In this document: piece after piece, positions 24,790-58,100 of the stretch
Layout of the letters: each line of letters begins with the position of its first letter
Numbering within the stretch: position 1 is the stretch's first letter
Source of the DNA: Savitreella phatthalungensis
Taxonomy: Eukaryota
Direction: 5' to 3'
DNA: 64,000 bases
Assembly (NCBI GenBank): GCA_051599415.1
Contig: AP039692.1
Coordinates: 496,001-560,000 of the forward strand
Notes under the pieces: generated by a model
What the model was told of the DNA's origin: nothing
Databases searched by the model: none
What the model saw: only the letters and a program-made list of their open reading frames with translations
Made by a program: the position numbers and the translations under genes

Positions 24790-25323
24790 CTAGGAGACCG
24801 ACCGGAGGTACTCTTGCCGTGCAGTGTTTGAGTCGAGTTCTGGCGCACGGTTGAGGGGTGTCCACTTTGGCTCGTCCTTAAAGAGACGCATTGCCTTAAT
24901 GTAATTTGTCTGTGCGGTGGTGAAGCGGTGGTAGATCCCTGCTGGCAAGACTGCCAGATCACCCTTCTCCATCGCCAGCCTGATCCACCTGTCGTCCTTT
25001 GTGCGGACGTCAAAGAAGCCCTCGCCATCGAGGATGTACCGAATCTCCTCGTCCTCGTGCAGGTGCTCGTTGAAGAACATCTTGACCTTGTCCTCGTACA
25101 CGTCCCCCATCGCAGTCGGAGACACGGTGATCTCATCCCGGTTCTTGTACCCGCGCTCAGCAGCAATCTCATTCACCTTTGCAAGTCGACCTTCAGCGCC
25201 ACCTGCCACATCCTGCAGCTGCCAAACAAGCACGCCGAGCGAGGCCAGCTTATCAAAGGGTACTAAATCGCCCTGATGAGCTAGTCGCTGGTCGCCTTCG
25301 CCTGCGTAGTAGTATGCCTTCAT
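24790..25323 (-). CDS. ADI1: Acireductone dioxygenase (methionine salvage)
   Basis: [66 protein letters not shown]. Confidence 0.96.
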
Positions 25324-26221
25324 CACAGGTCGGTGGAGAGTTTAGCAAGAGTCCTGTACCCAACAGTCTATTGAAGCAGACGGCTGCTGTAGTGTAGAGT
25401 GCAAGAGTGATGTAGAGTGAATGATATCCGCATGTAAATTTGAATTGTGAAAGGCTGTACAGGATAAGAGTTGATCAGCTCATTGCACGTGTTCGGTCAG
25501 ATCACTTTCCAATGATTTCCAGCAATTCTCCACGGAAGATCAAACTATTCCTGCATGTTGCATTTTCATTTTGACTTGACTCTCGAGGTAGTTTCCGGTG
25601 TAGGTGATGATCGAGCCAAGCTATAGTTTATAGCTATACATATTGACGGCTACTCACTGCATCACTGCACGCGTCATGAGTATAAGCTGCTTCAATTTGT
25701 ATTCACGTGTACGTAGGTATGTATGTATGAATTGGGAAATCGATCTCGATTTCAGATCTCAGATCTGATCTCATCCAATCCAATCCATTAATTTTGTTCC
25801 CATCCATCTCTAAACGAAACGAAACGAACGAACGAAAGATCGAACGAATGAGCGAAAATAAATCCAAGATTGCTTGCAAAGTGGAATTTAAGTTACTTGA
25901 GTCTGAGTCAAGTAAGAACTCTTGACCATGACATCAAGATTGATTGATATACAGTTTAAACTTGACTCTCCCCCATACCATACAAGGTAGGAAAAGTGTC
26001 CTATTCCAGTATACAGTATACAGTATACAGTACGTACTCCAGTACGTACCGTACGATACACTCCAAGAGTCCAGTCTCCAGGTCACCGGCCACAACAACC
26101 TTCCTTCATTCATTCGTTTTGCAGGGTCACAATCACCTCCCCCCTGCTCTCTCTCTCTCTCTCAAATTCAAGGATTCTTGCCTTACAAGAGTCATCCACA
26201 CTCTCTTGATCCATCTCAACG

Positions 26222-27901
26222 ATGGTCGTGGTAAGCACATCCATCAAACTCACCTTCTCTCGAAGCTGACCATCGATATAGAAAGCAAGCCCATCGGCAG
26301 ACACTCCTCTGCAGCTCATCACTTCCTATCTAGAGCAAGCACAATCAACCACTTCCTCCTCGGAAAAGGATGAGTTCATCGCAGCTGCACTCAAGATTGC
26401 AGCTCGGCTTGACGACTACCTTACCGAGACCACGACCCCTGCAAGTTCCGGATTGACGAGCATGATTGACTCGACGATGGCACAGGACTGGGACGCTCTG
26501 CATGCTGAAGGCAAGACCAAATACCACTACACCAGCAACTTCTGTGCTGGCACATTCGAGGCACAGTTCGTTGCCACCCTCTGTAGACTGGTCCAGGCAA
26601 AGGAAGTGCTCGAAATCGGCATGTTCACTGGCACAACTGCTGCTGCCATGGCACAGGCCATCCCAGATGACGGCTTGGTCACAACGTGTGAGATCGAGCC
26701 GTGGCTGGCGTCCTTTGCGCAGTCGCACTTTGACCGAGTGGGTGTGTCCGGGAAGGTGAAGGTGGAGCTGGGTTCGGCACACGAGACGCTGCCTCGACTC
26801 GCTCGGGAAGGCAAGGTATTTGACCTGATCTTCCTGGACGCGGAGAAGACCGGATACAGCGCATACTACGACGCAGTGATGGAGCACGGTCTCCTCGCTC
26901 CCTCGGGCGCCTTTATCGTTGACAACACGCTCTTCAAGGGCCACGTCTTCACCGACCACGAGTCTGACGACAACACAACAGCCCTCAAGCAATTCAACCT
27001 CAAGATCAAGAACGACGACCGTGTTGACCAAATCATCCTACCTGTCCGAGACGGCGTTTCCGTCATCACCCACCGCCGACCCACCTCCGGCGACCCAGTC
27101 TACACAGGTCACCTTGGCAACTCGATCCTCCAGCGATTCCGCCTTAGCGGGAAGAGCGCTCTGGTGACCGGTGGCGGTATGGGCCTAGGTCGTTGTTACG
27201 CGCACGCGCTCGGAGAAGCTGGTGCTAGCGTGTGTGTCGCGGATCTGAATGTGGACGCTGCGCGTGCCGTTGTCTCTGAACTTGAGCGGAAAGGTGTTCG
27301 AGCGATCGCTGTCCGCGCAGATGTGTCTTCAAAGGAGGACTGCGAGGCGATGGTGGACGCTGCCGTGTCTGCATTCGGCAAACTCGACATTGCCGTCAAC
27401 AACGCCGGCATCAACCTCTCCTCCGCAGCAGAAGACACTCCGGAGACAGAGTGGGACGCGACCATGGCAGTCAACGCCAAAGGCGTCTTCCTCTCCTGTC
27501 AAGCCGAAGGCCGTCATATGCTCTCACGCCCTTCAACCACCGGCTGCTCCATCATCAACGTGGCGAGCATGTCTGCTGTCGCTGTCCCTCACCCACAGAA
27601 GCAGATGGTGTACAACGTTTCGAAGGCTGCTGTGAAGAAGATGACGGAGACGTTGGCTGTTGAGTGGGGTGGTCGCGGGGTACGGGTGAATGCGATAGCG
27701 CCTGGGATTGTCGAGACTGATTTGATCACCCTCAACCCTGCACTAGCACCACTCCTATCCACCTGGCTCACCCAAATCCCACTCAACAGGCTAGCATCCT
27801 TTGCAGACTGCGCACCAACCATCATCTACCTAGCCTCAGACGCATCAGCCTACGTCAACGGCACCATTGCTCTCATCGACGGTGGTCAAAGGTTCGGTTG
27901 A
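26222..27901 (+). CDS. O-methyltransferase (MysB/CCoAOMT-like) - SDR oxidoreductase fusion, gadusol MT-Ox-like; exons 26222-26230, 26282-27901 (~542 aa)
   Basis: ATG GTC GTG, then an intron GTAAGC..GCTGAC..TAG (26231-26281) in frame with the long ORF. MT part: TPLQLI..LDDYLTETTTP, VLEIGMFTG, FDLIFLDAEK, VDNTLFKG, FN....DDRVDQIILPVRDG. SDR part: TGGGMGLG, VADL, NNAGIN, ASMS..PHPQKQMVYNVSK. Confidence 0.85.
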
Positions 27902-28098
27902 GATAGAGAAAGAAAAGTTTATTAGATCGAGAGACAGAGAGAGAGAGAGAAGTCAAGAAAAGTCAGCTAGCTACGCTTAAGCTTTAGCGAGTGAAAAAGG
28001 ACGCGAAAAATAGATCAAGAGACAGAGAGAGAGGCATAGGAGATCCGAGACGTGAGTATTGAAAGGGGGTTTGTCGGTGAGGGAGTGTCACACCTTTT

Positions 28099-30756
28099 TC
28101 AAATAGAGAAGAATCCCAATCTAGGAAAACCATCATCCTCTTCCACATCCTCCCCCGTTGTCGTTGTAGTCGTGTTGTGATGAGCTTCGACATCGACAGT
28201 CTCGAGCGAGCCGAGGTGATCCATCGGGTGGTGTTGATGGTCGTTGTTGTCATGGAGATCGGATGGTGCAGAGGTGGCTGGCAAAGTGTCCTGGACTTTT
28301 CTGTGCTGCCCATGGCTGCGAGCGTGTGATGACAATGGGACTGTGGATCTAGGCCGTTTAGGTGGGTTCACATTCCCAGGTCGACGTGATCTGACTTCGG
28401 CGCCACCACCGTCCTTCCTCGTCCCGGCTGAGCCACCGAGCACGGGAGCTGCGGTCGCTGGACGGATTGGGATGGTGATTGGGGGACGGAGGGCGTGGTT
28501 GATTGCGGCAAGCTCTAGACCTTGATTTGCAGCTAGGACAAAGGGATCTTCGTCGTCCTCGTCGTCATCGTCATTCTCGCTTCCGGCTGCACGGCCACCG
28601 GGGATCAGCGACCGGCGGGAGATGCAGGCGTAAGGATCGAGCCCCGTGGTCCAGCCGAACGCGGTTGCCGGGTCAGCAGACAGGGACATGTTACCCCAAT
28701 CATCTGCTGCCGCAAGCGCGTTCGAGGCCGTGGTGAAGTCGTCGTACACACCCGAAGAGGAAGCGAGCGTCCATGACGGCATACTTGCCGATCTGGCCAT
28801 CGCAGATGGCGTCGCTGTCGTCGGTGCTGTGGTGTTGGTGGTCGTGGACTGTGCAGTGGCTGAGCCAGCAGACACCGCGCGTGACATTGCCCCTGTGCCC
28901 ATCGAGCTGTAAGGGACGGCGCGTGGACCGGCGTGGGCGTAGATGGCTCCACCTGTGAGATCGTAGTAGACGTCGTTGACGTTGTCCGTCGTCAACTCGG
29001 TCGGCGATGGCTGGGTGATTGGGATGGTGACTGGCGCAGGCGTTGGCGTAGCTTGAGGTCCAGCCGATGCAGGATCGGAAGCGTGGCGCGCACCCTTGCG
29101 GCTGGACGACGCTGCTGATCGTGCAGCCGCCGGAGCGGCCGGGTAGGGTGTGAATGAGGCAAGCATGCTCCTGCTGCGATGGAGCAAAGGCGCCGTGCGA
29201 GACTTGAGGACCTGCATGTTGGATGCTGTCGGGCGTGATGGAATCTGCTGTTGCTGATGCTGGTGGACAGCTGCTTGCTGGGCTGCGATCTGCTGCTGCT
29301 GACGGGCTTGTGCCTGCTGCTCTGCATAGATGCGCGACATTTGAGCGTTCTGGGGTGGCTGGCCGCGCTGCTGGATGACCCAGGCAGCCGTGCGATCCTG
29401 GATGGCGACAGGACGAGCGACGGTCCTGCCGAAGCCTGTGTCTGACTTTGAGAACTCCCAGATGAGGACGGCTGCACGACGAACGCCGTGAGCAAGCGAG
29501 ACGAGCTCCTGGACGACGGTGACACCGTCGACGGCGTTCCGAATATCACGCTCGCGTCGCTCGCCGTCGATGTGTGCGAGGCCTGCAAGGAAGGCCGCCC
29601 AGAAATCTGTGGCAAAAGGAACGGATGGCTGACCATCTGGCATGCGCTGTTTGAGCTCGAGCACCTTGTTGCCCATTGTGTAGATCCGCGTGGTGCATGC
29701 CCAGGGCTCGTTCATAGGTCGTGTGACTGCTAGCTGGGTGCGGAGGACCACACCGTCTGTGAGATCGAGCTGACCCGGCAGGTGGAGTGAAGACTGGATG
29801 TAGAACACGGGGCAGGCCATGCCACGAGCGTCCACGATCATCTCGCTTAGGCAGGGGAACTTAAACGGCCAATCTGGGATAGAGTCGAGCGGGGTATAGG
29901 TGTCTGCCGAGCCAGCGAATTTTGTATAGCAGTGCGCCATCTCGTCTGACCGTCCTGATGCGTCTGCCCCACCGACTGAGCCAGCGTTCTGGCCAGATGA
30001 CGCCCTACCTGACCGGCGGGTGGCCCAGACGACAAAGTTCGAGACACGAAGCGTGTTGGATCGCACGCTGGGCATGCCTTGTGAGACGTGACCGGGCGGC
30101 TGAGCGATGAACTCGCTCGAGCGGTAGCCCATCGGCGAGAGGACGCCGTAGACCTGTGGGACGTGCTGGTTGTTGGCGCCGATGCCGACGGGCAGGTTGA
30201 GCTCGTGGGAGTGGTCTGGGCTGTCTGCGACAAGGGAGAGAAACTCTGGGTCGTCACGGCGGATGTGCTTGAGCACCTGAATGTGTGAGGACACCTGCTT
30301 CCGAGTTCTCACCTTGCCAGTGCGTCGGAGGATGTAGTCTGCGATGAGCTCGTTCCTGCCGCACGGTTTTGACCCGATCTGAATCTTGCGTCTTCCGAGC
30401 TTCGGGATATGTCTAATGGCCTCCATGAAGGCCTGCTCGATCTCTGGACCCCAGACTGGATCCTCGTCCTCGTCATGATGGTGGTTGACCGTAGGCTTCT
30501 GGTTAGAGTCTGGAGGTGTCTGACTGGGCTGATTTTGGGCAGCTTTCTGTTGCTGCTGTGATTGCTCTGGCATCTTGCGTGGCTTGCCAGAAGCGAGTGT
30601 CAGAGCCTCTGGAGTTGTGAATACGTTTTTCTGTCTCGTGAAGTTGCTTGACGTGTTGGTCTGATCAGTGAGGACGCGCTTGGCCGTCAATGGCGGCGTG
30701 TTCTTCTCAAGTGGACTCGGGAGCAGGGCCCTTCGAACTGGAGTCTCAGTGATCAT
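28099..30756 (-). CDS. TEA/ATTS-domain transcription factor (AbaA/Tec1 family)
   Basis: [56 protein letters not shown] is the TEA domain; Q-rich region follows. Confidence 0.92.
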
Positions 30757-32770
30757 GTGCGTGTCGCGCGTCGGCGAGCTTTTTGGTGTCTTTTTGGAAG
30801 GGAGGAGGGTTTCGAAGAGGTGACGAGCCTGATAAGAGAGTGTGGATGTTCAAGGCTGTCGCTCTACAGTTGCTCGGTCGGTGAGCACAGCAGGGAGCGC
30901 GAACGTGAACGGGAATAGTAACGATGACCGGGTTCTTTTCACTTTGATGAAAGAGTTTAGATCGTCGTTAAGGGAATCTTCGTCAGAGTTGTTGTGCGGT
31001 CTGCCGGACTCGAGAGAGTGAAAGTTCGGCTGACTTGAGGAGCAGCAAGAGTGCGTCTTTGAGGGTTAGAGAGCGTGTGAAGTGAAGGGAAGGTTGAAAG
31101 TGTGTAGGTGAATAGGCGTCACCCTTTGCGACCGAGGCGGGTCAGCGTGAGTGAGGTAGACACTGAGGTAGGGAGCGAGTGAGTAATCAAGCGGGTCAAC
31201 TTTCTGAGTGACTCCGTAGGGGGGATCGGGAGGGAGGAGAGGGGCCCGTAGGTCGGGTTGTCGGTCGATGGTGTTGATGGGAGTGCTGGAGAGTAGTGAA
31301 GATTACTAGCCCGTGAAGGAGGTTCCAGGTGCAGGTGCAGGTGCAGATGCGGGTGGAGGTGCGGGACCTTGTTGCCTGTATGGTGCTGTTGCACACCAGT
31401 GTTTTTGTCTCAAACAGGTCAAAAGGAGGTGCGGTGATGATGCCTGGAGGTGTTGATGATGCAGGTAGTCAATGTAAAGCTTGTTCCCGCTTGCTCTCAA
31501 TTGAATGTTTACACTCTGATTGATTTGTCTGCGGCTGTAGACTTACGCTTTGCCTTTTGGTGCTTGACTCCTTGAATTGGAAGTCCCTTTGGCAGTTCTG
31601 AGAGATGAGAGCGCCCTGTTTGTATGAGTCGGCGTGTGGGTGTGCGTGTGTGTTTGTGTGTATGAGTATCCTAGGTGTGAGTTCGGTTAGATCTTCCCAC
31701 TCGATCTGTCAAATTGTCTGTGTCTGTAGCCTTATTTCTGTATGTGAGAGCGTAGATGTGCTTGTGCAGGCGCGAGGCTTGCTACAGTCTGGCTTTTTGT
31801 GTGTGGAAGGGTGTCTTTGACCGTCTGGAGATTTGTGTGATGATGTTTTCCAGGAGTCACAGGAGAAGGAAGCTTACGGCTTTTTAATGTTTTTCCTCCC
31901 TCTTCAGATATGTTCTGTGTTTTCTCGGTGGTCGGAGCAGCCTTTTGACCGTGATCAGAAGAACAGATCTGACTTTCCAATTGAATGATTGGATGGCGTG
32001 CAAGTTTAGCGGGATCAAGGAGAGAGGGTGTGGGTGAGAGAGAAAGATTGACGAAGGGTAGAGCGTAGTTCAATCCTCGGGGGTTTAAAGCGATGGACAG
32101 CAGCAAGCGCGCAGATGGCTGAAAGAGAGTGCAGCAGGGGAAAAGTGATAGATGATCACAGAAGGGAAAGATCGCTCTCACTGTAAGATTGTTCAACTTT
32201 GACTCGGAGGTTCCAGCCTCGAGAAGAGAATGAAGAGCGAGAGTGAAATGGAGAGAAGACGGAGAGATGAAAGTACGAGAAACGCAATTAATTCCCTCGT
32301 CTTTTCGATCAAAGATCCTTCGAGGACTTTTGAAGAAGTCTGCGTCTGATGTCAGAATGGCTAACAGATCGTTGCCTTTCTATTTTCCCTCGAGGATTTT
32401 CTTCGAGGAGAGTCAACGCGAACGCAAACGTAAGCGTCAGCGTGTCCAGGTGCAGGTGCGTGTACAGTTGCAGGTGCAGGTGCGTGTGCGTGTGTGTATG
32501 GGAGGTTTCGGGGAGAGGAGGGGAGGTGGGTGAAGTGGTCGAGTGGGGGAGGAGTGCGAGTGCTTGTGCTTTGGTGTTGAATGATGATGATAATGATGAT
32601 GGACTGGATAGGTGGACTCGGTGGTTCGGTGGGTCTAGAACTCCCCCGGTGGTCATTCACACCTGTTTCTGTAAATGATTGCTCCACATGATAAAAAGGA
32701 CTCGGTCAATTGAGTGAACCGTCCATCAAAGCACATCAGGACGTTGTTGAGTACTCGAGTGAAGCTGACA

Positions 32771-33374: not shown

Positions 33375-36116
33375 CTAGAGACCTACAAACAAAGGTTCAC
33401 TGATATACTGTCCATCTGCTGAGGCGTAGGTTCCGAATCCCATGTACTGCTCGGCTGTAGGTAGCATTCCCTTGTCGCCTGTGTCTAGGAGTGACATGAG
33501 TAGGTCGCTCTCGTCTAGACCTGTGGGGAAGGGCGTGCCTGTGAGTGTGCCCTGGTTGTTGTGTGAGCCGTCCTGGTTGGTGATGCCGGCATTGTGGGCT
33601 GTGCCGTCTAGGAGGCCTGATGGTTGTGGGGATCGGTCGTCCACGTGACCGTGGCTGTGTCCTGTGCCGCCGCCGAGCTGGTGCATGTGCGATGAAGAAG
33701 AAGCTTGTCGCTCCCCGGCGCCGCCGCCGCCATGCGCGTGTGACCGCGGTGCAGCCAGCATCGCATCTGCACCACCATTAGGACCTAGTCCACTACCTCC
33801 CGGCAGATTCGGCGAGCTCGAATTCACACCACCTTGATTGTCGTGGTGGACTTGCATCGGGTGATTGCCGTTGCTATTGCTATTGCTGTGGCCGTTGCCC
33901 ATCGCAGCCACTTCCGATGGCGAGACACCGTAGTCGATCGATAGGCCGTGGTGATGCTGCTGTTGCTGTTGCTCGCGCTGCTGCTGTCTGCGGGATCTCA
34001 GTGCTTGGTTGCACATGTACCTGAGGAATTGGACGTCGCGCAGGTTCCGACGAGAGCCCTCTGATTTGGTAGAGAAGTCCTTCAGAATCTGGAGAGCGAC
34101 GCGGAGATCAGCCTTGCACGCCTGAGCGGAGAACTGTGGGTGCATTTTCGACTGGAAGTTGAGGACGACAGAGAAGATGACACCGACGGCGGCAAGCAGG
34201 TATTGCTTTGCCGGGTACCACAGTTGGTCCACGAGGTCCGAGGTGCGCTTGACGAGCGAGATTGTGTGGATCATCTCGCTACACAGCCGTAGCGATAGCT
34301 CTGCCATCCTGAACTGGAACGAATCCTGTGAGACCTCCGTTTTCGGCGGTTCGGTCACGAAGGGGCGGATCAATAGCAAACGGACGTGGCATCCGCGAAG
34401 ATGAAGGAAGAGCTGTTGCTTGGATAGCCACTTTGGCGCCCGGCCGAGCTTGTCCTGGGAGAAGCGCAGGAATGCAGGCAGTGCATATCGCCATTGTTCC
34501 AGCTGGGAGTCGAGGTCCGTGACTGTGCGCTCGTCTGGCGGGAACTGCGCACGGACGCCGTAAACCTTGTCGTAGATGGTGCCGCAGATGGCTGCGAAGT
34601 GGACGTAGGACATCAGGTATGGGATCTTTGATTGTTCCAGCCGGATCTCCGCATCGAGCTGCTGTGGGAAGCGTAGAAGGTCATCAAGCGGGGTCGGGAA
34701 GTCGACATCCGAGTCAGAGTCACGAATACCGATCGGCCGACCTAGTGAGATGCTTGTCCGGCGATCGAGCAGGTATAAACACCACCATGTCCGCCGACGT
34801 GTCTCGACGACCAAGGGCGTCTGGCCTGTTTCCCTCGTGCGCAGGTGGAGACCGATCTCGAAGGCTGCGCGGATTGCCATGCCGGTCATCTTGTAACTTG
34901 CATCTTCGTCTTCGATATGCAAGAAGTAGAGTGAGAGGAGACAGAGCGCCTGAACTGATTCGAGATCGGCAGGCCTGTCGAGGTACTTATCGACAATGAG
35001 GAGTTTGGCGGACAGGTAGTATTTGTGCGCCTGGATTGGACACTGGTCCAGTCCCTGCTGCTCCATCAGGATCATCGCTGCTGCGAGGGTCGCGTACAGG
35101 AGTCCCATCTCACTTGGCGCATACCGCTCCTGCACGTCCGGCAGGTAGTCGCCCTGCGCGTCCCACAACGGAGCATACAGGTCGACAAAGCTGGGCCCGT
35201 GAATCATGGGATACATGCTCATGAGGTCATCGAACAGGGTTGCGAGGATGGCGTAGGTCTCCCCGCGAGGGGGAAGATCCTGTGGGTTAGAGATCGAGAT
35301 GTCAGCCATTTTTTGGGCACCAGTTGGGCTGGCTGGCCGCTCGCAATGGATCAACTCTGCTTCTGTGCGAGAAGAGGCCGGCAGGGTCGAGCATAATCTT
35401 GTGCGCAGCTTGAAGAGCTCCGAGTTGGATGCTGAGGCGCCGTAGAATGCATCGGATGCTGGACCGCTTCTGATTGATATCGACTTGCGCGCCGACGATT
35501 TTGGCGATTGTCCGTTGGCAAGCGAATGGGAGCTGACGGCAGGTGCTGAGGCTGGTCCGCCCATGGCTGCCGTTGCTGCCGCAGAGGTAGGGCCTTTGCT
35601 GAGATGGAGCTTTGGTAAGCGATCTTGCGGGCTGCCGAGAGATACAGACGCCGAGGCGGCGCGCTTGATGCCTGATAGCGCATGTGTCGCGAGTCCAGCC
35701 GGGGTTTGTGACGTGCTCGGCAGTGGGTAGTGATGGAGGATCAGGTCGACTGTATGCTCGAGGCTGGACAGCCGCGTTCCGTAGTCCTCGTCGATGTCTG
35801 ATCCGATGAGCTCGGTCATCATACTGGCATCTGCTGCTGAAGGGTCGCCTGAGCCGGGTCCGTCGCCATCGCCGTCACCATTTCCACCTGCTGTGGATGT
35901 AGCGTCGCCCGGCCGATGACCTGGCCGACGCGCTCCACCACGGGCCTTTCCTGCGAGGTACAGACATTCGACGCCGACCCCGACGCAGTGTGAACATGGC
36001 TGTGATCCGTCACATCGGATCTTGCGCCTTTTACACTCTGCACATGCCTTTGAGACGTACTTTAGTCGCTTGCGCTTTTGAAGGTCTTCTGTTCCCGGGC
36101 TGTCGGGTTCATTCAT
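33375..36116 (-). CDS. Zn(II)2Cys6 fungal transcription factor with Fungal_trans domain
   Basis: ACAECKRRKIRCDGSQPCSHCVGVGVECLY; AIRAAFEIGLH..ETRRRTWWCLYLLDR..LGRP. First in-frame ATG is at 36116; an upstream exon is possible. Confidence 0.9.
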   Translation of the reverse strand: MNEPDSPGTEDLQKRKRLKYVSKACAECKRRKIRCDGSQPCSHCVGVGVECLYLAGKARGGARRPGHRPGDATSTAGGNGDGDGDGPGSGDPSAADASMMTELIGSDIDEDYGTRLSSLEHTVDLILHHYPLPSTSQTPAGLATHALSGIKRAASASVSLGSPQDRLPKLHLSKGPTSAAATAAMGGPASAPAVSSHSLANGQSPKSSARKSISIRSGPASDAFYGASASNSELFKLRTRLCSTLPASSRTEAELIHCERPASPTGAQKMADISISNPQDLPPRGETYAILATLFDDLMSMYPMIHGPSFVDLYAPLWDAQGDYLPDVQERYAPSEMGLLYATLAAAMILMEQQGLDQCPIQAHKYYLSAKLLIVDKYLDRPADLESVQALCLLSLYFLHIEDEDASYKMTGMAIRAAFEIGLHLRTRETGQTPLVVETRRRTWWCLYLLDRRTSISLGRPIGIRDSDSDVDFPTPLDDLLRFPQQLDAEIRLEQSKIPYLMSYVHFAAICGTIYDKVYGVRAQFPPDERTVTDLDSQLEQWRYALPAFLRFSQDKLGRAPKWLSKQQLFLHLRGCHVRLLLIRPFVTEPPKTEVSQDSFQFRMAELSLRLCSEMIHTISLVKRTSDLVDQLWYPAKQYLLAAVGVIFSVVLNFQSKMHPQFSAQACKADLRVALQILKDFSTKSEGSRRNLRDVQFLRYMCNQALRSRRQQQREQQQQQHHHGLSIDYGVSPSEVAAMGNGHSNSNSNGNHPMQVHHDNQGGVNSSSPNLPGGSGLGPNGGADAMLAAPRSHAHGGGGAGERQASSSSHMHQLGGGTGHSHGHVDDRSPQPSGLLDGTAHNAGITNQDGSHNNQGTLTGTPFPTGLDESDLLMSLLDTGDKGMLPTAEQYMGFGTYASADGQYISEPLFVGL

Positions 36117-37075
36117 CCCCGGTGGATGTGGGTCAAGAGGTTGCAGGTCAAGAGTGACAGAGGCTGCGCGTGATTGATTTGGCTTCACCGCGCTGGGTTA
36201 TTGCGCGCGCAAGGCTGATTAGCAGATCGCGCTGTACGAGTGTAGTCCAGTAGACAAGTCGGTGAATCTGTGAATTGGAGCCCAGTGATAGAGAAGGAAG
36301 TGGATAGAGGGGAGGCTCGAGTGATGATGATCTGATTCCTCCACCTTCCTTGTCTGTCGACTTGCTGATGAGCCTGGTTGAGTAGGCGATTGAGCGAGCG
36401 ATTGAGTGGGCGATTGAGTGACTGGTAGATTGCTCTCTTTCAGAAGGGTTTTACGTCAGGTGAGCTGTGTGCAGCTGAGGTGCATCTTTCGATCAACTAG
36501 CTTGCTGGTTTGAATGATGCTGCATTTGATTTACAAATTCACACTGCAGTGCATATATATGCGACCGACAGCCACACATTTGGATATATAATCAATATAT
36601 GCCGTCCGTACGTATAAATGATTAGTTTTGCAAAGTGACTGATCATGTTATATCCTGACCAGATTCAATTCATCTAATCTGGGGAAGCATGATTCACGTG
36701 TACTGACCTATTATACCGGTGACCATGCTTGACAGCTGCATGAGTAATACTGTACTACCCGGCACAAAGTCTTTCCTGTCAAGACCAGCTGGTAATTCCC
36801 TTACCGACTCACCTGATGACCCAGCTGTCAGACAATGTCGAGTCAGATCAAGTGATTTGGGTCCACATGCTCCATTGACGAAGACTCCAAGGCGCCCTAA
36901 GTCAAAGTGACTACGAGCAAAGTGACAATTGAACGCATCACGGTCAAATGGTGAACATGGATTTCATTGACAGTTTGAGGTAGACAGAATCAGGTAAGAC
37001 TGATCGGAATGGCGAAGCGCGCTAAAGTATGAAGAATATCGATCAGGATCTCTCTGATTGATGATTTTTCCCCTT

Positions 37076-49085: not shown

Positions 49086-51554
49086 TTACATTCCAGCTTG
49101 CCGTGTCCACAGGGCTGCATAGTATCCGTATCCGGTAGGTGAGGCTTTACTGGCTTCAATAAGTTGGTCATGGGTACCTCTCTCGACGATTTGGCCGTCT
49201 CGGACGACGATGATGAGGTCAGCTTGACGGATGGTCGACAGTCTGTGTGCGACGACGAAGGCTGTTCGGTTTCTCGCAAGGTTTGAGAGTGCCTGCTGGA
49301 TGAGATGCTCTGTGTGAGCGTCGACCATCGAGGTTGCCTCGTCTAGAAGGACGATCGGAGAATCTCGCAGAAGAGCTCTCGCAATCGCCACCCGCTGGAG
49401 CTCACCACCTGACAATTTCACACCGCGCTCGCCGACCTCGGTGTCGTACCCGTCTGGCAGCGACATGATTCGGTCGTGGACGGCTGCTGCGCGGCAGGCA
49501 TTCTCAATCTCTGCGTCAGTGGCGTCGAGACGGGCGTAACGCAGATTTTCACGCAGACTGAAGTTGAAAAGCGCTGGGTCCTGAGGGACGTAGGCGAAGG
49601 CCTCACGGAGCGAGTCGAGCGTGACGCTCCTTACATCCTGATCATCGATCGTGATTGCGCCAGAGCTGACGTCGAAATACCTGTACAGCAGCTTGAGAAG
49701 GGTCGATTTGCCACCACCGGTTTCGCCGACAAGAGCAACCGTCTGACCACGCTTGGCGACGAAGGAGATATCCCGGATCACTGGTCTGCGTGGATCGTAG
49801 CTGAAAGCGACGTTCCGGAAGACGACTTCACCACGCTTGAGTTCCAGAGGTTGAGCGTCAGGGGCGTCTACGACGGACGCTTTTGTCGTCAGCAGCTTGA
49901 GAAGACGCTCAGAGTTGGTGAGCATCTGGGAGATCTTCCGCACAGAGTATGTGACTTCCCATAGTGGATCCTCAATACTCGTCCAGTAGGTGGCAAGGGT
50001 GATGAAGCGGCCGACGGGGGTGCGGCCTGTTGCGACTCTGTGAGCTGCCAAGATGGTGGCTGCGATGTATCCTGCTGTGAGCGCAGCAGACTGAACGCCT
50101 GCGGCCGCGTTCCATGCAATGTAGTATCGTGTGGCGGCCTTTCGTTGCTTTGCTGTCACGGCCTGGTAGCGTGCGCACTCGTGCTCGCCGCGATTGAAGT
50201 GTGAGACCGTGTGCCAGGAGGAAATTGCCTCATTCTGAATGCGGCCTGACTCTGCGATGGCCGTATTGTGGTCTCTCAGGAGCTGGGTACTGAGGCCGTT
50301 GACTTTCGCACCGACCAGCATGTACGCTGTTCCCATCAGCAAGAGTACGAGCGCCATATACACATCGTCATCAAACAACACGTATACGTAGACGAGTGCG
50401 ATCGCGAGGTCGAAGAACGTCGGCAGCGCCGTCACAAATACAAATTCGAGTAAGTCGTGGAGTTCCGAGCCTTGATCGATGGCACGAATCAGCTCACCTG
50501 AGGACTTGTCGTTGTGGAAGTCCATGGAGAGATGCATGATATGGCGAAATGCGGTGGTGACGATGTTCTGGAAAGCAGTGTACCTGACTGGCACCTGAAC
50601 GATCTCTCGCAGCAACGGAAATCCAATGAAGGAGTTGAGGGCATAGTAAATTGCCCATAGAGTTACACTCGACCATGGCGACTCGCCCCTGGCTAGTTGA
50701 TCGCCCACGAGACCGAGCTGCCGCGGGACGAGGACGTTCAGGATGCGGCAAGCAATAATACATACGCCGGCCGTGGCGAAACAGAACTGAACAACAAGAT
50801 TGTTGCGCGGCCACAACATCGGCAGGAAAATGCGGTAGTTTGAAAGGTAGGCAAACCAGCTTCCTGATGCCCTCAGACGCTTGCGCTGCTCCTTTCGCAG
50901 CTGTTTGTGATCCTCTGCGATGTCCGGGTCTCCCTCGTTGTCGGAGTCCAGAAATCCTTGGACGTCTTCATCCTCATCGTCAGAGTCGGTCTCTTCAGGA
51001 TCGAGAAGCGTGTCTGTGGATGCGGTCAGACCAGCTGATGGCACATCTTCTAGCATGATTCGCTTCGGTCGACTGTCCATGGCTATTGTCGTGCTGATGA
51101 CAAGAACGAATGCAAGGCACACAATGCGCAAGTACGCTGGCACGTTCTGCTGAAATGCAGCGAGTGTGAGCTCCGCTACAAGGGCGAGCGTGCAGCTGCC
51201 AAGGTATGGGTGCCACACTGGATTCTTGGTGCTCGACAGGTTGACTGCAAGCAACGTGTAGATGACCAGCCTGAGTACGACAGATACAGCGTGAGCATCC
51301 TGACCAGACCGTGCATCGAGCACAGCATCTGCAAGCTGGATGGCCTCGATCAGGAGGGTGATGCAGGACAGGATGAGGAGGGTAATGATGCAGAGTCGTC
51401 TGCGCGGATATCTTGCAGCACGGGAGCCCTTGTGGAGCAGGCATGTGGCGATAATGCTCGCAGCAAGATAGTAAGCGCCGATGAGCGCGGGCACAGAATA
51501 GTAGAGAGCCACGAGCATGTTAGTCGTCTGCTGGGTTGAAAATAGGACATTCAT
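49086..51554 (-). CDS. Half-size ABCB transporter, HMT1/ABCB6-type
   Basis: Extra N-terminal TM region, ABC TMD (HIMHLSMDFHNDKSSGE), Walker A GETGGGKST, Q-loop VPQD, LSGGELQR, Walker B LLDEATS, AHRLST. Start is ATG 51554 or 51518. Confidence 0.9.
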   Translation of the reverse strand: MNVLFSTQQTTNMLVALYYSVPALIGAYYLAASIIATCLLHKGSRAARYPRRRLCIITLLILSCITLLIEAIQLADAVLDARSGQDAHAVSVVLRLVIYTLLAVNLSSTKNPVWHPYLGSCTLALVAELTLAAFQQNVPAYLRIVCLAFVLVISTTIAMDSRPKRIMLEDVPSAGLTASTDTLLDPEETDSDDEDEDVQGFLDSDNEGDPDIAEDHKQLRKEQRKRLRASGSWFAYLSNYRIFLPMLWPRNNLVVQFCFATAGVCIIACRILNVLVPRQLGLVGDQLARGESPWSSVTLWAIYYALNSFIGFPLLREIVQVPVRYTAFQNIVTTAFRHIMHLSMDFHNDKSSGELIRAIDQGSELHDLLEFVFVTALPTFFDLAIALVYVYVLFDDDVYMALVLLLMGTAYMLVGAKVNGLSTQLLRDHNTAIAESGRIQNEAISSWHTVSHFNRGEHECARYQAVTAKQRKAATRYYIAWNAAAGVQSAALTAGYIAATILAAHRVATGRTPVGRFITLATYWTSIEDPLWEVTYSVRKISQMLTNSERLLKLLTTKASVVDAPDAQPLELKRGEVVFRNVAFSYDPRRPVIRDISFVAKRGQTVALVGETGGGKSTLLKLLYRYFDVSSGAITIDDQDVRSVTLDSLREAFAYVPQDPALFNFSLRENLRYARLDATDAEIENACRAAAVHDRIMSLPDGYDTEVGERGVKLSGGELQRVAIARALLRDSPIVLLDEATSMVDAHTEHLIQQALSNLARNRTAFVVAHRLSTIRQADLIIVVRDGQIVERGTHDQLIEASKASPTGYGYYAALWTRQAGM

Positions 51555-51797
51555 CTTGAGAGATTGTCTAGCAATAGGCTTTCCGCACCCTAGGCCTAAT
51601 TCAAAGTCAAGAAAGAGCCTGGAAAGGACAGGTGTTAGGACCAGTTGAGCACCCGAGGTGATGCGTCTGAAAAAGAGCCTTGCCAGAGACCCATCAAGCA
51701 CACGTACGTGTCTCCTCTGTGTCTGTGTGTGGGTTGGTCCAGCTAAACGGCAACTTTGAGCGATCGATTTAATATGACGCTGTAGCTCGATCGGGAG

Positions 51798-51819
51798 TTT
51801 TTTTTTTTTTTTTTTTTTT
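51798..51819. repeat. Poly(T) tract (22 nt) between the ABC transporter start and the NRPS stop
   Basis: Homopolymer directly visible; may be a nucleosome-excluding promoter element. Confidence 0.85.
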
Positions 51820-52184: not shown

Positions 52185-55100
52185 TCACTTCAATTGTTTG
52201 CCGATTGCGGCTTGCCAGATGTCGCTGATGAGCTGCTGGGCAGCAGCTTTGGCGAGGTCTTCTGAAGCGCCTAGACAGCTTCGTCTTCCAAAGACTCCGA
52301 TGTCGACGAAGGCCGAACCATCCGACTGAGTGACGACGCCAACCTCGATGTCGAGCTGTGGCTTGACGAACAAGTCTTTCGATGTATTTGCTGATGACGA
52401 AATGTCCTTGTATGCACGTCGGATCTGGTTGATATGTTGCGGTGCCAGAGTCGAGCTGAAGGAGACACTCTTCAATGCGGCGTTCTTGTCATCGGAGCTG
52501 CGGACAGGCAGGATGTTAACGCAGACGTCAATCAGGCCACCGTCGTCGAAGTCATTAAGAGATTGGTGGAGCTGGTCGACTCTAACTGCGGCATCGAGAC
52601 TGCCTTGTAGAGACGTGATCTTCTGATGTATCTGCTTTGCACACGCTTCGATGCCGTCTGAAAGATCGACGACGAGCGGCACGATGTTGACAGTGGGCGC
52701 ATTGATCGAGTCGGCGCCGTCGATCGGCAGCGATCGGCCTGCGAGATAGGTACCCAAGGTGAATTTCTTGGTAGCTCGATCGGCACTCTTCGTAAGGATG
52801 ATGGATCCGATTGCAGCAAGATAGATTGATTGTGCTGAGACACCGAGCCTCTTCGCTCGTGCTTGGACAATCGTCGCATCGCGAGCGTTCTCGTACCCAG
52901 TTGAATGCAAGTCGAACTGGTGATCGTCGCCCGCTTCTGCTTCCTCGAGATGAAAAGGTGTCACATCGCCCAGATAGTGTCGCCAATTTGCTTGAATCCC
53001 CTCTTGTTGATGGTGTATACTACTTGCTAGCTGGAACAGAGATTCATCATGCTTCTGATGTTCTCCATTTAGGGCTTGCTCAATTTGTTGGAGACTTAGC
53101 GCATCGTATAGCGCGTGATGGATGGTTAGGACCAGTTGTCGACCATCCTGTGCGATGATATGCGTAAGCCTTGCTTGCGGCTGCTCCTCTGGAATGAGGA
53201 ATTGTCGAGAATCGATGAATGCCGAGATGGCTGTAGAGAGGTACTCTTGAGACTCGTAAGTCTGCACGCGTGCATTTGGTGCCTTCTTCATGCAGTACTG
53301 CAGGTGCTGACCGCTCACAGTGGTAAAAGCAGTACGCAGTATATCTGTCGTGTCGACAAGCTCCTGCCATCGGGCTTCGACAGTCTCGCTGCTTAAAATT
53401 TTGGGCACGTCCAGGGTGAAGTTTGATAAGAATCGCGCACCATTCGTTGCCCGGTGAGCGGCATGGAAGTACGCCTGTGCCGGCAAGACTGGTGCAACAA
53501 AGCTAAGAGCGTCCTCAGTGAGACCGAGTTGCTTGCTTGTCCGAATGAGCAATTCACTGTCAGCTGTGAACGACTGACTCGCTGGTGATGACGACGTTTC
53601 GCCACCACGTACAGCTGCGATACCCTCGATCGTTGGTGCCCTCAGAATTTGCGCTACGCTGAGCTTGAGTCCATGTTTTCGTAGACGCTTGTTGAGAGCG
53701 ATAGCTGAAATGGAGTCGAGTCCTACTTCAAAGATATTGGTATCATCATTGAGCTTTGACTGTGGAACGTTCGCCACGATGGCAACAGCTTCCTTGACGA
53801 TTCGGATATGTCTCTCTGATGCTGTGGTGTTCTGAGCGCGTTGGGATTTGGCTGGCAAGTCAATCTCAGCATTCGGCTGCTTGAGAATTCGCCTCAGCGT
53901 CGTGTCCATTGCATCAGCAATGTCAATGCCCGATGGGAGCACATCTTTCCTGACAGCTGTAGTGTAGTGGAGAACACCATCAGCAATCGAACATTCAAGC
54001 GCTAGCGGGAATTCAGTACTTGAGTCTTCCTTGACCGTTGTCCAGGATAACTGAGTCGCCGAAGCTGCCTCCCTTGCGGTCATGAAAATGAAAAGTGCAT
54101 CGAACAGCGGGCCTGATTTGAGCTGCTTCTGTATTTGCCTGAGCGGGGTATGGACATAGGGTGAGAGCGCTGTAGTCCACTCGTGGAGCTGTTGAGCAAG
54201 CTGATCGAATGTTGGTCGCTGGAGGGATGCGGTAGAAACCCGGACGGGCACAGTATTCATGCAAGGGCCCAGAATGGAATCGGCTTCTGCGGCAAAATTC
54301 CGGCCGGCGAGGACGAGACCAAAGATGAGGTCTTGTTGCTGGTAGATCTGCATGAGAACTTGTGAATACGCAACTTGCAACAATGCCTGCTGTGTGACTT
54401 TGAGCTGCCGCGAAACGTCACGAAGAGTATCGATATCGATGGATGATGCTGTCACAGCCTTGATGGCCTCCCCACCTGCTGATGGGAGACGAGAGGGCGC
54501 GCTACCGGACAGTTGAGTGTTCCAAAAGTATGTTGCTGAAGACCTGTTCTGAGCATGCAGATGCCGCAGAAGCGGAACGAGTGTGCGCCGTGGCTCAACA
54601 TTGTTGCCGCGAACGAGATCGGAGAGATCTGTTAGAAGCATGTCGAGAGAGACGCCATCGTACAGGGCATGGTGAATTGAGAGTGCCATATAGCTTGACT
54701 TTTTGCCCTCCAGTAAAAGGACCTCGAATGGTTGACGCGAGGATTTTCGATCGCTTTGCCACTGACTGTAAACCTCTTCGACATCTTGATCGGTAGTTTG
54801 GCGCACAATGGGAGAGATCTTCTTGTGAACGAGCTGGACGAATGTCTGGTCATTGTCCGACAATTTGAGAAAGGTTGTCCGGAGAATTTCGTTGTCAGCA
54901 ACAAGTTGTTCCCATGCCTTTTCCAGCACCGTTAGGTCAACGTCACCCTCGAGCTTGTAGAGTGCGTGATTGAGGTAAGCACCCTGCTCATCTGCAAGGT
55001 CGACCTCGATTAGCATACCCTGCTGTGCTGGCGCTACCGGGAGAATATTGACGACGTCAGTAGGGATGTCATGGCTGCGTCGAACGTTCTGGTCGAGCGA

Positions 55101-58100
55101 GGTTAGATATGTATTCCAGTCCTCATCGAAGGTCTGGTCGGAGGTATCTCTGTCATCGTCGAGGTGGCGCTCGATTGCGGCCACAGAGTCGTGCTGCATG
55201 AGCTCATCGACAGACACTCGGATGTTCTGCTTTTTGAGGGCCGCACTTAGTCTGATCAGATCGACAGAGTCTAAACCAAGCGCTGCAAAGGTCTCGTCTC
55301 CAGATGAGCGATGCTCGCCGTCAAGCCGAGCAATTTTCCGGACAATCTTCATGACGAGCGTACCAGTAACACCCAAGCTCGACTCGCCAGAAATCTGTCC
55401 TTGTCCTTGACGGTCAGCGATTGAAAGAGAAGCTGTCTCGTGCTCAATCACGGATGGGGAGAGATCGTGCAGTATATCTCCGGGATCACGCTTGTCCAAT
55501 AGTCCTTGCAGGACGGTCTTGAAAGCTTCGAGGATTACAACTGGGCTTGATGAACAGCGCTCCGTCTTGACTAGGAGGTCCAAAGTGTCCTTGTTTGCTG
55601 TGACGTCGAGAGCGATGCCAAAACCACTATTCTGTGCCGGTTGATCGATGAGATTGAAGCAGTCGAGTGTTTCAGCTGCCGCTGGCTGGTACGAGATGAT
55701 TGTGTCGACAAGTCTTTTACGGGCAGCCAGTCCTAGAGCGGTTTTGATTGCTCGTAACGGGGTATGCTGACGCTGAACGAGGTCCGTGTAGTTCTTGGCA
55801 GCGCGTTGGATAAGCTTTGCCGCAGTATCTCCTTGCTCGACTGAGAGACTGGTAGGTAGAGTGTTGAAAGTCGGATAGGTAGCGAGTTCAATGTCCTCGA
55901 TAGGTTGCGTACGCCCTGAGAGAACGATGGCGTAAAGCGAGGTCGTCTGGAAGCTCGCTTGCAGAGTCAATGCCCATGCTGCAGACAATATTGCGATAGG
56001 CGTGCATTGCAGGTCGTTTGCAAGGGACTGAAGCCGATCGGCAAGCTGCTCTGAGCTTCTAGCTTGACCAGACTGCTTTCCGGTGAGCGTGACAATCCGT
56101 GAGTCCTGGCTACTGGTTTTCCAATGTTCTGCAAACTCGGGCGATGCTCCATCAAGCACATGCTGAACGACTGTCTGAATCGGGGCCTGACTGCTTGCCT
56201 TTTGGCCTTTGTAGAGGCGCTCTAGGTCAAGGAGTAAGACTCCGAGGGACTGTCCATCATAGATCGCATGATGAGCGGTGAATGTGGCCCGAGAGTCGTC
56301 CAGGCTGAGCTCTACAAGCGATTGATTGAGCGGGTAGTCAGATTTTGCGTTGGAAGCCTTTATACCAGGTCTGACGATGACGTGTGCGATACCTTGGCTT
56401 GTGAGCACGAATCTGGAACGCAGAATCGGATGATGCTCGATGAGGATATCGAAAGCGCTTAGCAACTTGCCGCGATCGAGGTTGTCGACAGTAAATTGAA
56501 AGCTGTTGCAGTTGACTTTGCCACTCTTTTGCTGCAGAGATTCGACAACAAGTCCTTCCATTAGTGGAGCGCACGGGAAAAGGTGTTCGATGTCTGCAGC
56601 GTTAATATCGAGTGCTTCTGCGGCAGAGCTTCGATGCTTGTCCGCGAATGCGGCCATATCGTTTTTTGGAGACTGAGAGATGGTCTTCTGAGGATCAGAA
56701 AGCGAGCCAGCGATAGCCTGAATTGTACTGGCTGCCATGACGGTGGCGACACCGACACTTGGTAGACCCGCCTTTGCGAAAGCCCGAACTAGGCTAACTA
56801 CTGAGATAGAGTCGAATCCCAGCTCGAAGATACTTGCGCTTGAGTTGACTTCCCTTGGATCGAGTCGCTTGAGGCGAGCTACAGTCTGGATGACTGCGTC
56901 AACGACGTGAGGATCAGCCGGAGTGGCGTCTTGCGCACCTGATGCATCAGATGCACCACCACTAGTGTCGTCGAGCTCAGAGAATACACGACCAAGCTCC
57001 TTGACATCGACTTTGTTGTTCGGTGTCAAGGGCACTCGGTTGACAACGAGAATGTGCGACGGGAGCATGTATACCGGTAGCCTGCGCTTACATGCGTCCA
57101 GGAGATTAGCCGTGAGATCGTCTTTGCCACGGACGATTTCGAGACCTCCGCTGGACTCCTTCTCGACGATGAACGTGACGAGCTGATCTTTCTTGGTCTT
57201 ATGATGGTTGAGTACTGTGGTGAAAACGTGCTTGAGGTTGTCGGCGGCTTGGCGAATAACATGATCGATTTCACCCGTCTCGATTCTCTGGCCACGGATC
57301 TTGACCTGGGAATCGGATCGCCCGGCGAAATCGTAGCTGTGAGGACCTTGCTCGAGCAGACGAACAAGGTCGCCAGTATGATAAACTCGCGATTTAAGAA
57401 GCTCGTCGTATGTAAAGCGCTCTTTCGTCTGTTTTTCCAAGTTCATGTAGCCTCGAGCGACTTGCGGTCCACCAACAATCAACTCTCCGAGACCGCCTCT
57501 GATGGCAGGCATGGATGAGTCACCGAGGGTCTTGCGGACTACTGAGCTGCAGTTCGGCCAGCACGGTCCGATGATGGAGGGTCGCATATCATGAGGGACT
57601 TGCTTTGCGGCTGTACATCCGATAGTGAGCTCTGTTGGGCCGTAGAAGTTGAAAAGGACATCGGTGTCGCCCCACTCGTCGACAATCTCGCGCCTGAGCA
57701 TTTCGCCACCAGTGATGAAGACGCGCAAGGTCGGAGCTTCTTCGCGTGTGAGCGTGGCTGCTAGCTGGGGCGTGAGATCGAGGTGTGTGATGGCGAACTT
57801 GGAGATGATGCCTGGGATGTCTGATAAAACGACGTCTTTGGGAGCAGCACACACGCGGAAGCCGATGGTGTACGAGAAGAATTGTTCCAGGACCGCAACA
57901 TCAAAATGGAACGATGCGAAGGCGAGGAAGCGAGAATCCTTGTCGAACTGTCCACAGAATTCGTACTCGAAGGCTTTCATTGCCTCAACTGCGTTGCGGT
58001 GAGTCAGACAACATCCTTTGGGACGGCCTGTGGATCCACTTGTGTAGAGGACGTAGGCGAGGTCAGCTTCGTCAATCGATGGTGGCGTGTAGGGAGAGTC

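Follow-up and report, generated by a model that had tools for sequence, protein, structure and literature searches.

Within the 64,000 nucleotides of contig AP039692.1 of Savitreella phatthalungensis that were analysed here (hereafter, the window), we focused on the locus PYCC9005_001667, which encodes an O-methyltransferase (OMT) joined in one chain to a short-chain dehydrogenase/reductase (SDR), the architecture of the MT-Ox enzyme of the gadusol pathway. The species is reported to be a leaf-surface yeast (PMC8877625), and a taxonomy look-up places it in the Taphrinales, Taphrinomycotina. The locus is a two-exon gene on the + strand that runs from an ATG at 26222 to a TGA at 27899-27901 and has a spliced product of 542 aa, and the coordinates 26222..27901 given in a preliminary description of this DNA were exact at both ends. 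Exon 1 (26222..26230, +) consists of ATG GTC GTG and encodes MVV. It is followed by a predicted intron of 51 nt (26231..26281, +) with a GTAAGC 5' end, a CTGAC branch-like site at 26266-26270 and a TAG 3' end, and then by exon 2 (26282..27901, +) with 539 codons and the TGA stop, whose frame is uninterrupted from 26282 to 27898. The intron is needed because an unspliced transcript would leave the conserved DTPL region without a start codon. Short introns are typical of fungi, and the 51-nt intron of this gene is of that kind. The spliced product is 100% identical to a protein deposited for S. phatthalungensis as "hypothetical protein PYCC9005_001667" (P0001), including the N-terminus (MVVKASPSADTPLQ), which lines up with the Protomyces N-terminus in an alignment of 15 family members. 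Exon 2 is collinear with the 14 homologues in this alignment, with zero frame-breaking gaps.

Both enzymatic domains are encoded in the same frame of exon 2. Pfam Methyltransf_3 (PF01596) covers residues 79-262 of the 539-aa exon-2 translation (E 3.9e-43), and adh_short and adh_short_C2 cover residues 291-481 and 301-535, respectively (E 3.1e-58 for the latter). From the 5' end, all on the + strand, the MT half begins with a helical extension common to MysB (approximately residues 4-81; 26282..26515), delimited by the MysB alignment and the helices of an AlphaFold model, and continues with the class-I cation-dependent OMT domain (26516..27067), which matches Methyltransf_3 and has the S-adenosylmethionine (SAM) motif VLEIGMFTG and the metal ligands D189/D217/N218. 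An inter-domain linker with a conserved D274 and ILQRFRL (27068..27151; 15-sequence alignment) leads to the classical SDR domain (27152..27898), which matches the adh_short families and contains TGGGMGLG, D324, NNAG and the tetrad N401/S432/Y447/K451. The 15 aligned sequences, drawn from fungi, chytrids, algae, Artemia and fish, have 133 invariant columns and a mean column identity of 57%, with both domains and the linker collinear throughout. Invariant in all 15 members (P0001 numbering) are E114/G116, D189, K192 and D217-N218 in the OMT, and T299-G300..G304..G306, D324 at the end of beta-2, N376-N377-A378-G379, N401, S432, Y447 and K451 in the SDR. The Pfam domains and these residues agree with the earlier proposal of a single frame joining an OMT to an intact SDR; 12 of the 14 motifs named in it are present exactly as written, and the spacing was off by one in the other two (TPLQLI and FNLKIKNDDRV). 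As a general rule for SDRs, an Asp after beta-2 fits NAD rather than NADP, and D324 suggests such a preference here.

The AlphaFold model (mean predicted local distance difference test score, pLDDT, 80.3; predicted template modelling score, pTM, 0.55) has helices at 12-25, 29-53, 59-70 and 73-78 in the N-terminal extension, an OMT Rossmann domain at about 94-267, a linker of low pLDDT at about 270-290, and the SDR domain at about 295-535. Because of the pTM of 0.55 the orientation of the domains is unreliable, and we therefore conclude nothing on channelling between them. A fold search with the model gave SDR matches at template modelling (TM) scores of 0.80-0.90 (target-normalised); the structures retrieved were single-domain SDRs only, with no solved MT-Ox structure among them.

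A protein search with the translated gene gave at least 120 matches, and our statements on the family rest on the 120 matches listed, all of which (120/120) have both the OMT (PF01596) and SDR Pfam families. After the self-match, the ranking is headed by eight Logan/ENA/JGI proteins with 66-73% identity to the query. The named fungal relatives are from Protomyces lactucae-debilis (66% identity), Saitoella coloradoensis (57%) and the chytrids Rhizophlyctis rosea (two assemblies), Fimicolochytrium jonesii and Thoreauomyces humboldtii (49-53%), followed by the green algae Tetradesmus, Coccomyxa, Elliptochloris and Trebouxia (46-52%), and, from about rank 31, by fish and the brine shrimp Artemia (44-48% across 98-100% of the length). 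The E values of these family matches (1e-140 to 1e-260) exclude chance.

The zebrafish protein zgc:113054 (MT-Ox) has been reported to turn EEV (2-epi-5-epi-valiolone), SAM and NAD+ into gadusol (Osborn 2015, PMC4426668). It was not itself among the 120 matches listed, and other fish orthologues were compared; those named zgc:113054 (e.g., P0037, P0053 and P0116) are 45-48% identical to the query over 98-100% of its length (about 490-515 bits, E 1e-140 to 1e-149). When the two halves were compared separately with five animal MT-Ox proteins, the MT half was 39-43% identical and the Ox half 52-55%, as against 38% identity and 157 bits for the best solved SDR, and 120 bits for the best solved OMT. 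A grouping of the halves with generic enzymes fails because the similarity to MT-Ox is far above the scores of the solved SDRs and OMTs, and the MT-Ox-type identity suggested in the preliminary description is thus upheld by the homology of both halves and by the placement of the MT half (see below). No longer fused form (e.g., EEVS-MT-Ox, with the EEV synthase) was found among 20 matches, all of them SDR-only proteins of polyketide or malonyl-CoA-reductase types with at most 114 bits, which is weak evidence. Metagenome matches at three loci were all generic bacterial OMT or SDR genes without a cyclase and were used only as outgroups.

The polyol and sugar SDRs of known structure (PDB 3r1i, 3awd and 1vl8) resemble the Ox half in fold (TM 0.86-0.90, target-normalised), in the tetrad and in a PQQ..Y..SK-like loop motif, but they are single-domain proteins without a methyltransferase, and are 35-38% identical with 150-157 bits, compared with about 500 bits to MT-Ox. 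The SDR motifs listed earlier are all present in the gene, although one of them, VPHPQKQxxYNxSK, is not specific to MT-Ox, as a similar PQQ..Y..SK occurs in 3r1i and 3awd; the PQKQ..YN.SK stretch is best read as a mark of the polyol-dehydrogenase-type SDR subfamily and not of MT-Ox as such. The likeness of the Ox half to these SDRs is probably the reason for the database name "D-arabinitol 2-dehydrogenase". Proteins of the family are deposited under that name or as "hypothetical protein", both of which the present assignment corrects.

To place the MT half, bacterial and archaeal genomes were scanned with the family alignment, giving 80 loci. The stand-alone OMT in these loci aligns with the query from residues 3-11 to residues 262-265, including the N-terminal extension of about 80 residues, at 33-44% identity. 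In the sampled loci it is accompanied by a dehydroquinate synthase (DHQS)-like cyclase and by proteins of the ATP-grasp and D-Ala-D-Ala-ligase-like kinds, an arrangement that corresponds to MysA-B-C-D in the clusters for mycosporine-like amino acids. Cyclase homologues in the 80 MysB loci amount to 78 open reading frames (ORFs), 69 of them of the desmethyl-4-deoxygadusol synthase (DDGS) type and at least 59% identical to Cylindrospermum MysA; the other nine form a second class (37-40% identical to MysA). A homologue of the Ox half was found beside MysB in none of the 80 loci, with three weak SDR matches (26-32% identity) elsewhere in them. In a tree of MT halves, those of MT-Ox fall within the MysB family and are split from two generic OMTs at a Shimodaira-Hasegawa-like approximate likelihood ratio test (SH-aLRT) support of 95; the fungal and green-algal MT halves are together (94), and the fungal ones are one group (97). 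The MysB-like character first noticed from motifs is therefore confirmed by the tree placement and by an alignment that covers the N-terminal extension. Cyanobacterial and actinobacterial MysB proteins, which neighbour a MysA-type cyclase and MysC/MysD-like genes, share the MT half with its extension (38-44% identity over residues 3-262); however, they are stand-alone, are encoded beside a DDGS cyclase and methylate the DDGS product, whereas the Savitreella domain is fused to an SDR, lies in a window without a cyclase and has a partner cyclase of the EEVS type (see below). In two of the actinobacterial mycosporine-like clusters, a TauD-family dioxygenase gene directly follows MysB (L004:10828-11637 and L037:10823-11629), and after it come an ORF without a Pfam match and the D-Ala-D-Ala-ligase-like gene.

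The partner cyclase is encoded elsewhere in the Savitreella genome. A search with one second-class cyclase (L005) against a 50%-identity representative library gave 393 matches at E <=1e-30, the best 150 of which are listed, and a quick tree of 129 of these 150 cyclases contained a separate clade of 12 proteins of 348-682 aa, most of them 430-540. Ten of the 12 were looked up, and one member of the clade (P0257) was then used as a protein-search query. The fungal cyclases obtained are PYCC9005_001733 of Savitreella (P0339, 448 aa; 63% identity to P0257) and those of Protomyces lactucae-debilis (P0332; 83%), Saitoella coloradoensis (YB2330_005177; 47%), Fimicolochytrium jonesii (P0344; 48%), Rhizophlyctis rosea (P0351 and P0365, from two assemblies; 44-45%) and Thoreauomyces humboldtii (HKX48_002137; 45%). 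An EEVS-type cyclase is accordingly present in all six named fungal species with MT-Ox among the matches listed, three of which are Taphrinomycotina and three chytrids. In five of the six, the protein index reports MT-Ox and the cyclase on contigs of equal size (Savitreella, 714,618 bp; Protomyces, 565,986 bp; Saitoella, 308,388 bp; Fimicolochytrium, 2,244,513 bp; Thoreauomyces, 35,375 bp), and the sizes differ in Rhizophlyctis. The locus tags of the pair are adjacent in Thoreauomyces (cyclase HKX48_002137, MT-Ox HKX48_002138) and 45 apart in Saitoella.

P0339 scored 256.7 bits with the EEVS ValA (4p53), compared with 166.2 with the Anabaena DDGS (5tpr) and at most 124 with DHQS, and the zinc ligands E, H and H are visible in its alignment with the solved cyclases. 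The active sites of EEVS and DDGS have been reported to differ at ValA L267/D281/H360 versus MysA E254/A268/T347, with mutagenesis backing the first two (PMC10666671). In an alignment of 18 cyclases, Leu and Asp were found at the L267 and D281 positions in every EEVS-type protein, i.e., six of six fungal, three of three green-algal, two of two fish and three of three actinobacterial, and Glu and Ala in both DDGS and both second-class cyclases. P0339 is set apart from DDGS and falls with fish proteins that bear the name EEVS, as do some of the actinobacterial cyclases also grouped with it. NCBIfam has no DDGS- or EEVS-specific model, and the cyclases match its aroB-type models only, below the cut-off. 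By its sequence, PYCC9005_001733 is EEVS-type, with one difference, at the ValA H360 position, that is common to green algae. The gadusol-type route that had been proposed gains support from a cyclase in the same genome that is closer to ValA than to DDGS and keeps the two mutagenesis-tested residues of the three in the fingerprint.

The second-class cyclases beside cyanobacterial MysB (L005:7274-8662, L006, L011, L035, L038, L068:7945-9285 and L072) were considered as EEVS relatives and rejected, given their DDGS-type Glu/Ala fingerprint and their being closer to 5tpr than to 4p53. Their nearest representatives include proteins of 570-950 aa, and at least five long related proteins (P0145, P0147, P0151, P0153 and P0158) are cyclase-OMT fusions. 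EEVS-like cyclases are fused to a ROK kinase, a nucleotidyl transferase, an AMP-binding enzyme or an aldo-keto reductase (P0172, P0167, P0157, P0169, P0164 and P0189), and one protein of 2653 aa among these fusions has two cyclase domains.

Phylogenies were compared for the two partners. A maximum-likelihood tree of 25 MT-Ox proteins, chosen from the 120 matches listed (the other 95, mostly fish, were left out), has three clean groups, with fungi (10 rows) opposed to animals and green algae at 99/99. Within the fungi, chytrids (100/100) are separated from Taphrinomycotina (100/98), in which Saitoella is sister to the Taphrinomycetes-like sequences, and a quick tree of 41 rows gave the same result. 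In a tree of 28 cyclases rooted on five actinobacterial EEVS, green algae and fungi form a clade at 100/99 with fish outside, and the 10 fungal rows are one group (89/85) whose internal order is that of the MT-Ox tree; monophyly of opisthokonts (fungi plus animals) was not recovered in this rooted tree. As the fungal trees are congruent, EEVS and MT-Ox have travelled together in fungi. An EEVS-like protein of the green alga Apatococcus lobatus (P0354) joins the fungal cyclase clade (100/98), and not the other trebouxiophytes, on a long branch of 1.54, a placement that may reflect long-branch attraction, gene transfer or contamination.

The same comparisons bear on whether the gene is resident in this genome. 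Most fungi are absent from the named MT-Ox matches listed and green algae are the nearest non-fungal relatives (49-52% identity), as would be seen if the gene were algal contamination of the assembly or had been transferred very recently from a green alga. This is extremely improbable: the gene lies in the middle of the window, where its neighbours are fungal (genes for RPB1, a nonribosomal peptide synthetase, NRPS, and factors of the Zn2Cys6 and TEA/ATTS types), and in the MT-Ox tree it belongs to a clade with nine further fungal or fungal-like sequences, branching in an order that follows fungal phylogeny. Moreover, identity of only about 50% to any alga, GC content at third codon positions within the range of the neighbouring genes (0.657, against 0.56-0.72) and a short intron of fungal type indicate that the fungal copies are not recent imports.

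PYCC9005_001667 is very likely the intact orthologue, in a fungus, of the gadusol pathway's bifunctional methyltransferase-oxidoreductase MT-Ox, and some fungi probably make gadusol themselves. Work on the zebrafish enzyme (Osborn 2015, PMC4426668) is the basis on which we infer its substrate, step order and product. The EEVS-type cyclase would convert sedoheptulose 7-phosphate to EEV, a ring hydroxyl of which (C-2 or C-3) would be oxidised by the C-terminal SDR domain with NAD+; the resulting ketone would then enolise, and the N-terminal MysB-type domain would methylate the C-2 enol oxygen with SAM to give gadusol, a UV-B-absorbing antioxidant cyclohexenone. A putative sunscreen role fits the leaf-surface habitat of Savitreella. 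The vertebrate enzyme, as described for zebrafish zgc:113054 (PMC4426668), is likewise one chain of a MysB-like OMT, a linker and an NAD-type SDR, has all catalytic and cofactor residues in common with the Savitreella protein, and has an EEVS partner in the genome. It differs in that the Savitreella partner gene is non-adjacent and that the Savitreella gene has a fungal intron and belongs to a separate fungal clade.

Several observations weigh against MT-Ox function in Savitreella. First, no sugar-phosphate cyclase was detected in the 64-kb window by Pfam (24 ORFs of at least 150 aa, chosen from 52 listed with overlapping alternative frames left out) or by tblastn with four bacterial cyclases; with these and cyanobacterial MysC and MysD as queries, no match in the window had an E below 0.03. 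Second, the cyclase gene is 66 locus tags from MT-Ox, unlike the adjacency in vertebrates and algae, and the two genes appear to be on one contig of 714,618 bp on the basis of equal sizes in the protein index only. Third, the residue at ValA H360 is Ser in Savitreella, and the His is kept in none of the six fungal (S, A, G or C) and none of the three green-algal (A or Q) proteins, being found only in fish and actinobacteria. Fourth, the animal and the fungal/algal MT halves are not one clade in the MT-half tree, the deep branches of which are weak (81-82).

The missing His, the identity of just 45-48% to the characterised vertebrate group, and the broad polyol and sugar dehydrogenases that are the closest solved SDRs could all be accommodated by a change of function in the fungal clade, with the fused enzyme acting on another cyclitol or sugar-derived ketone and giving a product other than gadusol. 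We regard such a change as improbable, as conservation across fungi, algae and animals extends to both halves, the linker and every catalytic residue (the 133 invariant columns), MT-Ox and an EEVS-type cyclase co-occur in six of six named fungal species with congruent gene trees, and both mutagenesis-tested EEVS residues are retained.

A further question is whether gadusol would be the end product. The closest non-fungal relatives of both Savitreella proteins are those of green algae, in which neighbourhoods of EEVS, MT-Ox, ATP-grasp and O-methyltransferase genes (Coccomyxa, Chromochloris and Klebsormidium) have been linked to prasiolin and klebsormidin, compounds with a gadusol core (Foflonker 2020, PMC7826186). 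The algal cyclases are 44-49% identical to P0257, share the absence of His at ValA 360, and are grouped with the fungal EEVS at 100/99 to the exclusion of fish. Fungi are also known as makers of mycosporines, according to PMC10057719. The same enzyme could thus serve a longer pathway, with gadusol as an intermediate that an ATP-grasp or similar enzyme ligates to an amino acid or amino alcohol, giving a gadusol-core mycosporine. This is rather unlikely: in the algae the cluster also includes an ATP-grasp ligase and a second O-MT, whereas neither of these, nor any other ATP-grasp or MysD-like gene, was found in the Savitreella 64-kb window (best tblastn E 0.055 for MysC and 0.16 for MysD), and vertebrates are reported to use the two-gene pathway alone (Osborn 2015, PMC4426668). 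The DDGS-OMT-ATPG cluster described for Phaffia rhodozyma (PMC10057719) is similar in being a fungal sunscreen route from sedoheptulose 7-phosphate with a related O-methyltransferase; it differs in its set of enzymes, which comprises DDGS, an unfused OMT and an ATP-grasp ligase but lacks an oxidoreductase, and in its product, mycosporine-glutaminol. None of its three genes is in the Savitreella 64-kb window.

The named fungi with MT-Ox among the matches listed are only Taphrinomycotina and two chytrid orders. Of the "patchy, possibly horizontal" history suggested in the preliminary description, the patchiness holds, and the fungal copies are one clade with an order that mirrors the species tree. 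These data fit ancient descent with many losses as well as a single early transfer in which green algae took part, with later spread by vertical inheritance or from fungus to fungus. It is possible, if short of probable, that the EEVS/MT-Ox pair is an old co-inherited trait, either dating from the ancestor that Chytridiomycota and Ascomycota share or gained in one very early green-algal acquisition, that survives in a few sun-exposed lineages using gadusol rather than mycosporine as a UV-B sunscreen. The survivors would be soil chytrids (Spizellomycetales and Rhizophlyctidales) and leaf-surface Taphrinomycotina. For vertebrates, it has been proposed that the genes were transferred from algae (Osborn 2015, PMC4426668). 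If the pair is an old fungal trait, the "vertebrate" sunscreen pathway would be a widely lost ancient eukaryotic pathway and not the result of recent algal transfers; fungi add a third kingdom to this debate, grouping with green algae and not with fish in the cyclase tree.

A literature search found no paper linking gadusol, EEVS or MT-Ox to these fungi, although the C7-cyclitol synthase survey of Osborn et al. 2017 may list fungal EEVS. Going by titles and abstracts, the listed papers that name EEVS together with MT-Ox deal with vertebrates, green algae or engineered yeast, and Aureococcus and Coccomyxa were given as the sole non-vertebrate holders of MT-Ox as of Osborn 2015 (PMC4426668). Gadusol biosynthesis has been shown in vertebrates and inferred in algae, and fungi are described as mycosporine makers with DDGS, a stand-alone O-MT and an ATP-grasp enzyme. 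The Savitreella protein is an ordinary MT-Ox orthologue in mechanism, but in an unexpected kingdom and with a conserved partner, and the conservation of EEVS together with MT-Ox in two phyla of fungi leads us to predict a second sunscreen route in fungi that is as yet undescribed. The pair also puts natively fungal enzymes on offer for gadusol production in yeast.

Around the MT-Ox gene, an acireductone dioxygenase gene (ARD family, methionine salvage; 24790-25341, -) is divergent to it, with about 880 bp between the starts. A link of this neighbour to SAM supply is conceivable, and its position may be coincidence. A gene for a TEA/ATTS-domain factor (AbaA/TEC1-like; 28099-30849, -) is convergent with MT-Ox just downstream, and that for the Zn2Cys6 factor (33375-36197, -) follows. 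A scan for tandem repeats detected only short low-complexity tracts, with the gene flanked by a (CT)8.5 tract (26147-26163) about 60 bp 5' of the ATG and a (GA)11 tract (27929-27950) about 30 bp 3' of the stop. A sigma-70/terminator scan upstream gave one site against 2.4 expected, a bacterial signal that is meaningless for a eukaryote. Towards the end of the window, a large NRPS frame of at least 3937 aa (52185-63998, -), with three AMP-binding, five condensation and five PP-binding stretches, runs past the window end. It adjoins an ABC transporter gene (ABC_membrane and ABC_tran; 49086-51818, -), and the two may be a siderophore-type cluster.

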